This document shows positions 18,182-20,278 of a stretch of 64,000 nucleotides of DNA, in pieces. The stretch is taken from IMG/VR virus record IMGVR_UViG_3300026980_000004; one strand, 5' to 3'. Position 1 is the first letter of the stretch. Each line of letters opens with the position of its first letter. The translations under genes and the position numbers were made by a program. The stretch is from a virus (lineage: Duplodnaviria; Heunggongvirae; Uroviricota; Caudoviricetes). Under the pieces are notes generated by a model. The model searched no databases. It saw only the letters and a list, made by a program, of their open reading frames with translations, and was not told where the DNA came from.

Positions 18182-18269
18182 ATATCAATAAAATAAAGGT
18201 ACTTTCCGAGTGGATTAATCCCTCAGATTAAGGCTGCACAACCAGCCTAATTGCACTTTCTGCAATCCT
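18182..18269. ncRNA. 88-nt conserved array-flanking element, copy 1 (candidate tracrRNA / omega-RNA-like scaffold or leader)
   Basis: Identical to 20191-20278. Contains hairpins GGCTG-CACAACC-CAGCC and ATTGCA-CTTTC-TGCAAT. Segment CAATAAAATAAAGGTAC is partly complementary to the repeat core ATACCTTTCATTTGTTG. Confidence 0.45.
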
Positions 18270-18281
18270 GTTTATAATATA

Positions 18282-18488
18282 TTATCTTTCCATTGGTTTA
18301 AATGCTGTTAACATTGAACCTATAATCCAAATAAGTAATAATATTCTTTTTAATTCTGATGTTAGTTCAACAAATTCCCACTTAACAAATGAATATCCTA
18401 AATAGAACATACAAATAATGATTCCCCATAAAACTAGAGATAAAACAACCCAAAAAAGGTATTCAAGAATTATATAAATTATTTCCAT
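18282..18488 (-). CDS. small two-TM membrane protein
   Basis: 68-aa hydrophobic ORF. Confidence 0.35.
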   Translation of the reverse strand: MEIIYIILEYLFWVVLSLVLWGIIICMFYLGYSFVKWEFVELTSELKRILLLIWIIGSMLTAFKPMER

Positions 18489-18493
18489 GTATT

Positions 18494-19726
18494 TTATTTT
18501 TTTAAATTAATTAGTATATTATTTAGATGATTAAAATCTGGATTTTCTCTTAAAGATGAATTTTTATAAAGATCAGGTAACAAAGATATGATATTTTCTG
18601 TATAATCCAAAATATCATTATAATTAACTTTACCTAATTTAATATTTAATAAAAATTCTTTATCTTCTATTCTTTTTAGAATAATACCTTTACCTTCTCC
18701 AATTTCTTTGCACATTGTTAATAATCTTGCACAATGTGCCAAATTTTTTACATCATATTTTTGACCCAGATTATTTTTATATCTTTCTGGATTACGTTTT
18801 TTAACCCATTCTTGATATTCACGATAGTCTTTTAAATATGTTTCATATCCTTCTAAATTATAATACATAAATCCTAGCTGTTCAATGTCATACCATTGTG
18901 ATTCTTCTGGGATTTTAGGTATTGATGATAATCTTAATTGATTAGAATCTTTTTCTGGGTGTACAATACCCTTAAATTTGGCAAATTTAAATCTTTTTTT
19001 ACGATATTCAATAAAATCGGTTATACTTTTATTTGGAAATAATTCCTTATACCAAGTAATTTCCTTATCAATTCTATCTGTAAAGTACGTCAAAGAATGA
19101 TTATCAACAAATACCTCATATGTTGATTTACAATTTTTTAAACCCCTTAATCCAATAAATTTTTGATCAATATCAGAATCTTTTAAATATTTTGATATTT
19201 TAATTGGTTTAGAATATTTTTTAGTTGAATTATAAAAATAACAAAAATCCAATATAGATTTCTTTTTAACTGGAATTGGATTGTTCATTTTTTTATTTAA
19301 TCCAGTCGCCTTTTTAATTTGAGATGTTGCATACTTACCAAAAGTATCTAAACATTTTTTCGATATTATCATATTTAAATCAAATAGTTCAATATATTCA
19401 GATTTTATAATACAATTATCATTGATTTTAGCCGATGCTAATAGTTCAATTGCATTTGGATTATTTTTATATAATAATTCAATAAATTTACCAATTTCAA
19501 TATATGTTACGTCATTATCTGGTGTATTCGATATTACAGTATCAAAAGGATTTAACTTATATTCTAATGAATTATAATCTTCATTTTTTAATTTAAACAC
19601 ACCATAATAATCCTTATCTGATTTTTCTGTCTGTAAATTTTGTGAATATGAACCTATTAATGTTTTAAATATAACCAAATTATTTGATTCAATATATTCA
19701 ACAGTATATTTATCTTTTATTTTCAT
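18494..19726 (-). CDS. pol-beta-superfamily nucleotidyltransferase-like protein (GS-x9-SDxD motif), function unknown
   Basis: GSYSQNLQTEKSDKDYY near the N-terminus. The 410-aa gene sits between the two CRISPR arrays. Confidence 0.35.
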   Translation of the reverse strand: MKIKDKYTVEYIESNNLVIFKTLIGSYSQNLQTEKSDKDYYGVFKLKNEDYNSLEYKLNPFDTVISNTPDNDVTYIEIGKFIELLYKNNPNAIELLASAKINDNCIIKSEYIELFDLNMIISKKCLDTFGKYATSQIKKATGLNKKMNNPIPVKKKSILDFCYFYNSTKKYSKPIKISKYLKDSDIDQKFIGLRGLKNCKSTYEVFVDNHSLTYFTDRIDKEITWYKELFPNKSITDFIEYRKKRFKFAKFKGIVHPEKDSNQLRLSSIPKIPEESQWYDIEQLGFMYYNLEGYETYLKDYREYQEWVKKRNPERYKNNLGQKYDVKNLAHCARLLTMCKEIGEGKGIILKRIEDKEFLLNIKLGKVNYNDILDYTENIISLLPDLYKNSSLRENPDFNHLNNILINLKK

Positions 19727-19743
19727 ATTTTTTAGATTGGATT

Positions 19744-20168
19744 GTTGTGTATACCTTTCATTTGTTGGGTAGTGACAACTGAGCGTTTCGATGCTGTAAT
19801 TTTTTATAGTTGTGAATACCTTTCATTTGTTGGGTAGTGACAACCCAGATTTTGAATTAGAATACGATAATTTGGTTGTGAATACCTTTCATTTGTTGGG
19901 TATATACAACGGAAATTTGCCCAGAAACCTCATTGTTGTGAATACCTTTCATTTGTTGGGTAGTGACAACGCACCGACAGGTACTATTGCAGCAACAGAT
20001 GTTGTGAATACCTTTCATTTGTTGGGTAGTGACAACTAACTTGAAGAAATTTAATGCTGATTCACTGTTGTGAATACCTTTCATTTGTTGGGTAGTGACA
20101 ACGAAACCTATTGATTCATCTACCTCACTAATGTTGTGAATACCTTTCATTTGTTGGGTACATACAAC
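19744..20168 (+). CRISPR. mini CRISPR array 2: seven 36-bp repeats (first with 1 mismatch, some with variant 3' ends), six spacers of 24-30 bp
   Basis: Repeat GTTGTGAATACCTTTCATTTGTTGGGTAGTGACAAC at 19744, 19809, 19875, 19935, 20001, 20067 and 20133. Confidence 0.9.
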
Positions 20169-20190
20169 ATCACAATATATAACCAATTGT

Positions 20191-20278
20191 ATATCAATAA
20201 AATAAAGGTACTTTCCGAGTGGATTAATCCCTCAGATTAAGGCTGCACAACCAGCCTAATTGCACTTTCTGCAATCCT
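20191..20278. ncRNA. 88-nt conserved element, copy 2, abutting and overlapping the stop codon of the Cas12/TnpB-like gene
   Basis: Identical to copy 1 over 88 nt. Located exactly where a TnpB right-end/omega-RNA scaffold or a Cas12f tracrRNA would lie. Confidence 0.45.

Follow-up and report, generated by a model that had tools for sequence, protein, structure and literature searches.

The DNA analysed here is a stretch of 64,000 nucleotides (nt) from a virus of the class Caudoviricetes, IMG/VR record IMGVR_UViG_3300026980_000004, which we refer to as the window. Our subject is an 88-nt element that occurs in it twice, each time next to a CRISPR array. Positions 18182-18269 and 20191-20278 are identical at 88 of 88 nt and the match extends by 0 nt on either side, in agreement with a preliminary description of the window, made from the letters alone, that had reported identical copies with different flanks. 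A looser match between the two copies spans 99 nt at 96% identity. By our own estimate (~2e9 position pairs x 0.31^88), an exact 88-nt repeat in 64 kb of DNA with 25% GC far exceeds chance. Read along the minus strand, the locus begins with a cas12f nuclease gene, copy 2 of the element, array 2, and a gene for an RlaP-like nucleotidyltransferase, and it continues with an open reading frame (ORF) of 68 amino acids (aa), copy 1, array 1, and a Thg1-like gene (Table 1). The TAG stop codon of the nuclease ORF lies at 20279-20277, which means that copy 2 overlaps it by 2 nt before leading into array 2, while array 1 follows copy 1 with no nuclease gene beside it; both arrangements had been described correctly.

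The nuclease belongs to the Cas12f family. Its best match in the PDB is Al3Cas12f (9NZO/9NZR, E 4.4e-59), which it matches over its full length, and further structure matches were found to CnCas12f, RhCas12f, AsCas12f, OsCas12f, and Un1Cas12f1 (E 1e-14 to 8e-44). Two PADLOC profiles, Cas12u3 (3.1e-85) and Cas12f (1.2e-84), are covered from end to end. When the protein is aligned with 12 relatives, the columns of D265, E363, and D448 (RuvC) and of the zinc-ribbon cysteines C415, C418, C433, and C438 do not vary. Because of these full-length profile and structure matches and the invariant RuvC and cysteine residues, we take the 463-aa protein to be a Cas12f of the V-F/V-U3 clade that is probably active. 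A single-protein search of the viral contig collection returned no relative.

The RNA structure of the element is conserved, and it covaries. Both of the hairpins that had been named in the preliminary description, GGCTG/CAGCC and ATTGCA/TGCAAT, are present in the minimum free energy (MFE) fold, and a third hairpin, GAGGGAU/AUCC(A)CUC, was found beside them. Two orthologous loci, which we call L001 (88% identity) and L002 (70% identity), keep the counterpart of copy 2 directly after the cas12f stop codon with all three hairpins preserved. Compensatory changes in the orthologues turn ATTGCA/TGCAAT into ATCACA/TGTGAT, GGCTG/CAGCC into GGTAG/CTACC, and GGGAT/ATCC into GTAAA/TTTAC. For stem 1, the compensatory variants at the RNA level are AUCACA/UGUGAU in L002 and AUUGUA/UACAAU in L003, a contig from an unrelated phage that is described below.

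We counted covariation over nine aligned compact versions of the element from related loci, using a hand-specified structure of 20 pairs in three helices. Paired bases filled 98.1% of the cells, and 13 of the 20 pairs had changes on both sides; helix 3 (stem 2) was 100% paired, with five of its seven pairs changed on both sides. None of 500 shuffles matched the observed percentage paired, the number of pairs and cells changed on both sides, or the covariation score, and the observed value for further pair types was reached in 5 of 500. When the partners were slid by 1-3 columns as a control, pairing went down to 31-48%. A covariance model (R1) built from the nine compact sequences matched the two copies alone in the 64-kb window, at 95.6 bits each, and in the relatives all 52 of its 52 matches fell on the gene strand. 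R1 also recognised sequences at the expected position downstream of the gene in four Al3-like Alistipes/Rikenellaceae loci (L015, L016, L020, and L021; E 3e-4 to 8e-3). A simpler DNA pattern, GGTTGTG..TAATCTGAGG..CACTCGG, had 0 matches in the metagenome and genome contig collections; one candidate locus, L004, was discarded as a chance match to the first DNA pattern, within GC-rich coding DNA.

Two segments of the element contact the CRISPR repeat, and both covary with it. When the element was co-folded with the repeat in minus sense, 9 + 3 intermolecular base pairs formed (ddG -7.5 kcal/mol), whereas with the repeat in plus sense there was no intermolecular pair (ddG 0). The pairing joins the anti-repeat AGUACCUUU to AAAGGUAUU of the repeat, and UUU to AAA, and leaves the three hairpins intact, which places it within CAATAAAATAAAGGTAC, the segment in which an anti-repeat had been suspected. 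The second contact had been overlooked, although the hairpins and the anti-repeat had been recognised: the GGCUG/CAGCC hairpin has the loop GUUGUG, which is perfectly complementary to CACAAC, the last 6 nt of the repeat. A pseudoknot with the 3' end of the repeat is characteristic of Cas12 trans-activating CRISPR RNAs (tracrRNAs), as reported in a Cas12p preprint (10.1101/2025.01.20.633832).

For 16 loci, namely the window, L003, three loci from protein look-up, and eleven Bacteroidales contigs (genome or viral contigs), we compared the tracr region with the repeat of the same locus. The order cas12f-tracr-array recurs in 16 related loci. The reverse complement of the cognate repeat end was found within the hairpin loop in 14 of the 16, as seven different hexamer pairs (GUUGUG:CACAAC, GUUGGA:UCCAAC, GUUGUA:UACAAC, GUUGCA:UGCAAC, GCUGUA:UACAGC, GCUGCA:UGCAGC, and ACUUCA:UGAAGU). 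The anti-repeat likewise covaries with the cognate repeat over these loci. The tails that follow stem 2 paired with their own repeats at a mean of -10.7 kcal/mol, compared with -6.4 for foreign repeats (0 of 10,000 permutations were as good) and -5.2 kcal/mol for their own repeats after reverse complementation.

These contacts set the orientation of the whole system. The crRNA (CRISPR RNA) sense of the arrays is the minus strand, with each spacer 3' of its repeat, so the guides lie where they had been placed by reading in the nuclease direction, and the scaffold, which pairs with the repeat only on the minus strand, is read in that direction too. Both arrays use one common 36-nt repeat. Its 3' 16 nt, GAAAGGUAUUCACAAC, are preserved in nine of the ten window repeats, the single exception being a change of U to A, and the motifs GAAAGGUAU and CACAAC are each invariant in all ten, with the pairing positions retained in 10/10. 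Variation is confined to positions 5-10 (minus sense), within the 5' part that is expected to be trimmed. In the array 1 repeat nearest the element (18117-18157), the 5' half has degenerated and the 3' 21 nt are intact. Within array 2, one spacer (19911-19934) is just 24 nt long, while the other spacers measure 29-30 nt. A first impression of a Cas13b-type array, taken from the GTTG...CAAC repeat, was dropped: there is no Cas13 gene, and the tracrRNA pairing sets the minus-strand, Cas12f-type reading.

Table 1. Features of the CRISPR-Cas12f locus in the window, and paired tracr-like elements in relatives (coordinates in the respective contigs)
Feature	Position	Strand	Details
cas12f gene	20277..21668	-	463 aa; V-F/V-U3 clade; Pfam Cas12f1-like_TNB 8.5e-18
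Predicted tracrRNA gene, copy 2	20191..20278	-	Starts inside the cas12f stop codon; R1 95.6 bits
Copy 2, stem 1	20258..20276	-	(G)AUUGCA-GAAAG-UGCAAU(U); MFE fold
Copy 2, pseudoknot hairpin	20240..20257	-	AGGCUG-GUUGUG-CAGCCU; loop 20246-20251 complements repeat end CACAAC
Copy 2, miniature stem 2	20214..20236	-	UCUGAGGGA-UUAA-UCC(A)CUCGGA; CUGAGG...CACUCGG; fold and covariation
Copy 2, predicted anti-repeat	20199..20212	-	AGUACCUUUAUUUU; then U-rich tail down to 20191
CRISPR array 2	19744..20168	-	7 repeats (36 nt each), 6 spacers (24-30 nt)
RlaP-like nucleotidyltransferase gene	18494-19726	-	Pfam RlaP 3.9e-10
Hydrophobic 68-aa ORF	18282-18488	-	Between the two modules
Predicted tracrRNA gene, copy 1	18182..18269	-	13 nt downstream of the 68-aa ORF; no adjoining nuclease gene
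CRISPR array 1	17985..18157	-	3 repeats, 2 spacers
Two-element relative L027	2756-2830 and 4063-4137	gene strand	
Two-element relative L125	2736-2809 and 4148-4224	gene strand	
Two-element relative L106	2685-2766 and 4481-4562	gene strand	
Further two-element relatives		gene strand	L139, L102, L094/L096

We are confident that the element, read on the minus strand, encodes a compact tracrRNA (~84-88 nt) and that this RNA serves a type V-F CRISPR-Cas12f system carried by the phage. Such an arrangement is what one expects of a type V-F locus, and the element is a new compact phage-borne example rather than a new kind of element. Its modules correspond one by one with those of the Al3, MG119-2, and Rh single-guide RNAs (sgRNAs). 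The sgRNA of Al3Cas12f (Cas12f-MG119-28, from Alistipes) has stem 1 CCCCUUCGGGG, a hairpin GGGCGC-GUUGGA-GCGCC, an UUAGUUUGAGG...CACUC stem 2, and a 3' part in which AAAAAAUUCACUUGA is joined to the crRNA UCAAGUGAAU-AUCCAAC (PMC13186708 supplement). The order of the RNA modules is the same as in the window element, and the contacts with the repeat are alike: the loop GUUGGA meets UCCAAC and AUUCACUUGA meets UCAAGUGAAU, where the window has GUUGUG:CACAAC. Both RNAs have an anti-repeat of ~10 nt that leaves 6-7 repeat nt ahead of the spacer, neither has a stem 4, and stem 2 of the window corresponds to UUUGAGG...CACUCAAA of the Al3Cas12f sgRNA. The Al3-like genomes that R1 recognises also share the gene-tracr-array order.

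There are differences as well. The two proteins are ~35% identical, and the window stem 2 is just a 9-bp mini-hairpin compared with ~55 nt in Al3Cas12f, so the tracrRNA comes to ~85 nt rather than ~113 nt. It starts at the stop codon, whereas that of Al3Cas12f starts after an intergenic stretch of ~60-90 nt. Unlike the Al3Cas12f system, that of the window is phage-encoded, has 25% GC, and is duplicated. The RhCas12f sgRNA has a sequence core in common with the window element, GGCUG-loop-CAGCC..GUCUGAGGG..CCACUCGGAAAG. The guides of RhCas12f, OsCas12f, AsCas12f, CnCas12f, and Un1Cas12f1, whose nucleases are homologous, carry extra stems (3-5) and measure 130-190 nt, whereas the window element has nothing between stem 2 and the anti-repeat. 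The tracrRNA of Un1Cas12f1 (Cas14a1) presumably also contains GGGCUGCUUGCAUCAGCC...UCGGAAAGUAAC, with a repeat end AUGCAAC, a likeness that serves as a lead only.

Type V-F1/F2 (Cas14-type) loci have adjacent cas1, cas2, and cas4 genes. Unlike these, the window showed no Cas1, Cas2, or Cas4 among the neighbouring ORFs, nor in a scan of 42 others that were 110 aa or longer. Members of the V-U3-type clade are typically without adaptation genes. Phage-borne CRISPR systems that lack adaptation genes are already known, as are viral mini-arrays (review PMC11656645). Between the two modules, the RlaP-like gene, which had no PADLOC match, and the 68-aa ORF, which had no Pfam match in the Pfam scan that was made of it, are probably cargo outside the CRISPR system (18282..19726).

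The way in which such a locus would work can be outlined from its parts. The tracrRNA would arise from its own promoter or by processing of 3' untranslated regions, that of cas12f for copy 2 and that of the 68-aa ORF for copy 1, and each array would be transcribed on the same strand as the tracrRNA and cas12f. The RNA is predicted to fold into stem 1, the pseudoknot hairpin with its GUUGUG loop on CACAAC, a very short stem 2, and the anti-repeat AGUACCUUU..UUU, whose partner in the repeat would be AAA..AAAGGUAUU. The tracrRNA would be engaged by the last ~19-20 nt of the repeat joined to the spacer that follows, and a Cas12f dimer, as in solved relatives (PMC13186708), would bind the dual RNA. 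DNA complementary to the spacer would then be cut beside a protospacer-adjacent motif, probably T-rich as in the MG119 family. With two identical copies, each array would have its own scaffold directly upstream. When each copy was folded with its linker and first repeat, the same repeat:anti-repeat helix formed in cis in both cases and CACAAC was left free, which suggests that a transcript reading through from the tracrRNA into the first repeat and its spacer may fold in cis as a natural single guide for the first spacer, similar to a TnpB omega-RNA.

Several results weigh against this assignment. The repeat:anti-repeat duplex is short and interrupted, and an unconstrained RNAduplex search of the whole element against the repeat, in four strand combinations, scored no better than shuffled repeats; after this null result, co-folding and the tail-only test of cognate against non-cognate repeats were used instead. 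No protospacer was found for the eight spacers in the window, the phage collection, or any of the fetched loci, nor did three spacers searched against the viral contig collection and one searched against metagenome contigs have a match. No Rfam family matches the element, whether the gathering threshold is applied or E values as high as 10 are allowed. In naive pairwise alignment, the element reached z 1.7 against the Al3 tracrRNA, which is not significant, and z 2.9 against that of RhCas12f, the one significant score; naive global alignment to published tracrRNAs goes astray because of the large stem-2 insertion, and only the RhCas12f alignment was sensible. Since primary-sequence alignment is weak and Rfam holds no family, we base membership on architecture, covariation, and the nuclease family, and the link to validated tracrRNAs on architecture and the covariance model. 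For the protein, NCBIfam assigns just the generic guided_TnpB subfamily (126 bits, cut-off 100), and its Cas12f2 model scored 72.8 bits against a cut-off of 450, so the protein is not a Cas12f2. A sigma-70 promoter scan gave 34 sites where 34.4 were expected, which is no enrichment and is uninformative in DNA this AT-rich, and a terminator scan showed no enrichment.

Other explanations of the element were weighed against the tracrRNA reading. It could act mainly in cis, as an omega-RNA-like single guide, with a free trans-acting tracrRNA secondary or absent. We consider this rather unlikely, although the cis pairing in the MFE folds of both copies fits it, as do the first repeat of array 1, which retains just its functional 3' 21 nt, the loci L093 and L125, where hardly any sequence separates the anti-repeat from the first repeat after it, and the upstream copy in L002 that is fused to a repeat remnant (see below). 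What speaks against it is that six more repeat-spacer units in array 2 and two in array 1 have intact pairing positions and could therefore be served only in trans. In many relatives, U-rich tracts come after the anti-repeat, which suggests a separate 3' end of the tracrRNA, and the characterised Cas12f relatives use separate tracrRNA and crRNA (PMC13186708). Copy 1 and array 1 might instead be a decaying, non-functional relic of a segmental duplication, with only copy 2 in use. Copy 1 has no adjoining nuclease gene, and array 1 is a short one in which half of the first repeat has degenerated, all of which would suit a relic. However, identity at 88/88 nt between completely diverged flanks indicates that both copies are under selection or are homogenised by gene conversion; every repeat of array 1 keeps GAAAGGUAUUCACAAC; and the unrelated L003 retains a similar module standing alone, its stem 1 altered by a compensatory change. 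A relic is, on these grounds, improbable.

A further alternative is that the element has no scaffold function: it might be nothing but a leader or promoter segment common to both arrays, as had been raised before, or else a terminator for the gene upstream of it. Its position between an upstream ORF and the first repeat would fit a leader, and a weak promoter-like site, TTTAAA-17-TATTAT at 18302-18274, ends just ahead of copy 1. Compensatory changes in three helices, two segments that covary with the repeat over 16 loci, and a module order equal to that of validated Cas12f sgRNAs are not expected of leaders, and we regard such an exclusive role as very improbable; it may act as a leader alongside its RNA role. 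The preliminary description had offered two labels, of which Cas12f tracrRNA holds and TnpB omega-RNA does not. An IS200/IS605-type element, with the nuclease gene as its transposon TnpB and the 88-nt sequence as its right-end omega-RNA, is extremely improbable. In its favour, the NCBIfam guided_TnpB score is above the cut-off, the scaffold starts at the end of the ORF, and Cas12f scaffolds are evolutionarily related to omega-RNAs. The likeness extends to the TnpB omega-RNA (reRNA) of IS200/IS605 elements such as ISDra2 (PMC10097598, PMC8612924), where the nuclease gene and, at its 3' end, the scaffold share one strand, the guide comes 3' of the scaffold, and the nuclease combines a RuvC fold with a zinc ribbon. 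In the window, by contrast, the RNA is split into a tracrRNA and many array-derived crRNAs, with multi-spacer arrays (8 different spacers) after the element; the overlap with the ORF is just 2 nt; there are no transposon ends, and no adjacent TnpA was found in Pfam, PADLOC, and NCBIfam scans. The full-length profile matches of the nuclease are to Cas12f/V-U3, and the genuine IS607-like TnpB of the window (47082-48260) is a different protein.

The preliminary description had suggested that copy 1 belongs to a scaffold-plus-array module acting in trans, and this is plausible and is supported by L003 (IMGVR_UViG_3300037605_000008). This contig of 31 kb comes from a temperate phage, encodes an integrase and a terminase, and has 26-30% GC. 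Over the 11.5 kb examined, its sole similarity to the window is a stretch of 228 nt, 82% identical to window positions 20065-20291. This stretch (~9822-10048, minus strand) lies directly after the integrase gene and comprises the last 15 nt of cas12f, the tracrRNA, whose stem 1 shows the compensatory change, and an array of two repeats. The 11.5 kb examined contained no cas12f gene, and viral searches returned no close homologue from that contig; the L003 spacers matched neither the window nor L001 or L002. This suggests that tracrRNA-plus-array cassettes are able to exist without a nuclease. Array 1 and L003 share three features with mini-arrays, namely 1-2 spacers, no adjoining cas gene, and repeats matching a Cas-bearing system; a spacer target in related viruses, which would be a fourth, was not found in the window, the fetched loci, or the public collections. 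Like the viral mini-arrays of the review cited above (PMC11656645), they are phage-encoded, but the mini-arrays described there carry repeats only, whereas here each comes with its own tracrRNA. The further idea that a tracrRNA and a mini-array form a portable guide cassette moving between unrelated phages is tentative, and we hold it to be possible more than probable.

In many relatives, cas12f is flanked on both sides by tracr-like elements that are on the gene strand and have an array apiece (Table 1). Within each of these modules the pseudoknot loop fits the end of the module's own repeat: L027 has GUUGUA:UACAAC upstream of the gene and GCUGUA:UACAGC downstream, and in L125 the corresponding pairs are GCUGUA:UACAGC and GCUGCA:UGCAGC. 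In several relatives, the anti-repeats of the two modules also differ, each matched to its own repeat. Judged by these matched ends, one nuclease gene appears to be served by two divergent guide sets.

Some loci show other layouts. L002 has a second tracr-like element (7172-7300) just upstream of cas12f, which a short loop joins to the remnant of a repeat (AAUACUA-AUUAAA-UAGUAUUCACAAC); its would-be guide runs into the cas12f start codon, in what resembles a natural single-guide or omega-RNA-like layout. In L011, a relative at 35% identity, a long tracr-like region (3324-3610) leads into an apparent single repeat GTTGTAACAAGCATATATTTGAGTGGTTGTTACAAC and one guide, with no array. A very distant TnpB-like gene of 406 aa was observed in L173 (IMGVR_UViG_3300009868_000033, 1917-3330), and after it, within ~20 nt, comes an array whose repeats have a 3' 20 nt, AAATGAAAGGTATACACAAC, in common with the window and L003 repeats; model R1 detected no tracr-like element there. 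In six Bacteroidales-type relatives (L008, L016, L020, L093, L100, and L109), a conserved GTTCTTTGAtAT-like motif stands ahead of the tracrRNA, ~40-90 nt past the cas12f stop codon. It is absent upstream of both window copies. It resembles the Bacteroidetes -7 promoter element TAnnTTTG.

Judging from its gene content, the window is part of a large T4-like phage with ~25% GC. Among its products are a gp23-type capsid protein and a prohead protease, together with a Mom-like protein, a ClpB-like ATPase, DHFR, a dNMP kinase, and an MmeI-like restriction-modification enzyme. The low GC had at first pointed to a giant virus or to a Fanzor context, but this was set aside when matches to the gp23 capsid and the T4-type prohead protease were found. 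Mobile-element genes were also observed. A serine-recombinase (Resolvase) ORF at 48261-48827 lies directly upstream of the 392-aa IS607-like TnpB (NCBIfam guided_TnpB 1e-50), forming a pair on the minus strand, and a tyrosine recombinase is encoded at 49995-50798; in L001, an extra TnpB (2264-3445) is inserted near its cas12f. Three enzymes of tRNA-repair type occur among the CRISPR modules, a CCA-adding/poly(A) polymerase-family protein (173-1210), the Thg1-like 3'-5' polymerase (17136-17942), and the RlaP-like nucleotidyltransferase, and they may be a counter-measure to host anticodon nucleases. Finally, three consecutive ORFs at 22792-25287 (minus strand) begin with nearly the same N-terminal motif (MMNIIKIIKEEIEN, MKKMKILKIIKEEYN, and MDIIKIIKEEAYN), and this resemblance suggests a paralogous family or a common N-terminal module.

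These findings do not overturn current understanding. They describe a compact system, in which a 463-aa nuclease would work with a tracrRNA of ~85 nt, ~30-100 nt shorter than the tracrRNA or scaffold parts of the characterised Cas12f guides it was compared with. Because the guide architecture is legible in the sequence, a single-guide design can be proposed without RNA-seq: nt 1-80 of the element, a GAAA linker, AAAGGUAUUCACAAC, and a 20-nt spacer. Small nuclease-guide pairs are of practical interest for genome editing that is limited by delivery. If tracrRNA and mini-array do travel as a cassette, a phage without a nuclease could borrow Cas12f from a co-infecting phage or from the host, and the mini-array strategy would extend to tracrRNA-dependent systems. 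The locus presents a large lytic-type phage with two guide cassettes for one nuclease, and it offers a clean example of a tracrRNA pseudoknot loop that covaries with the 3' end of the repeat across a Cas12f clade.

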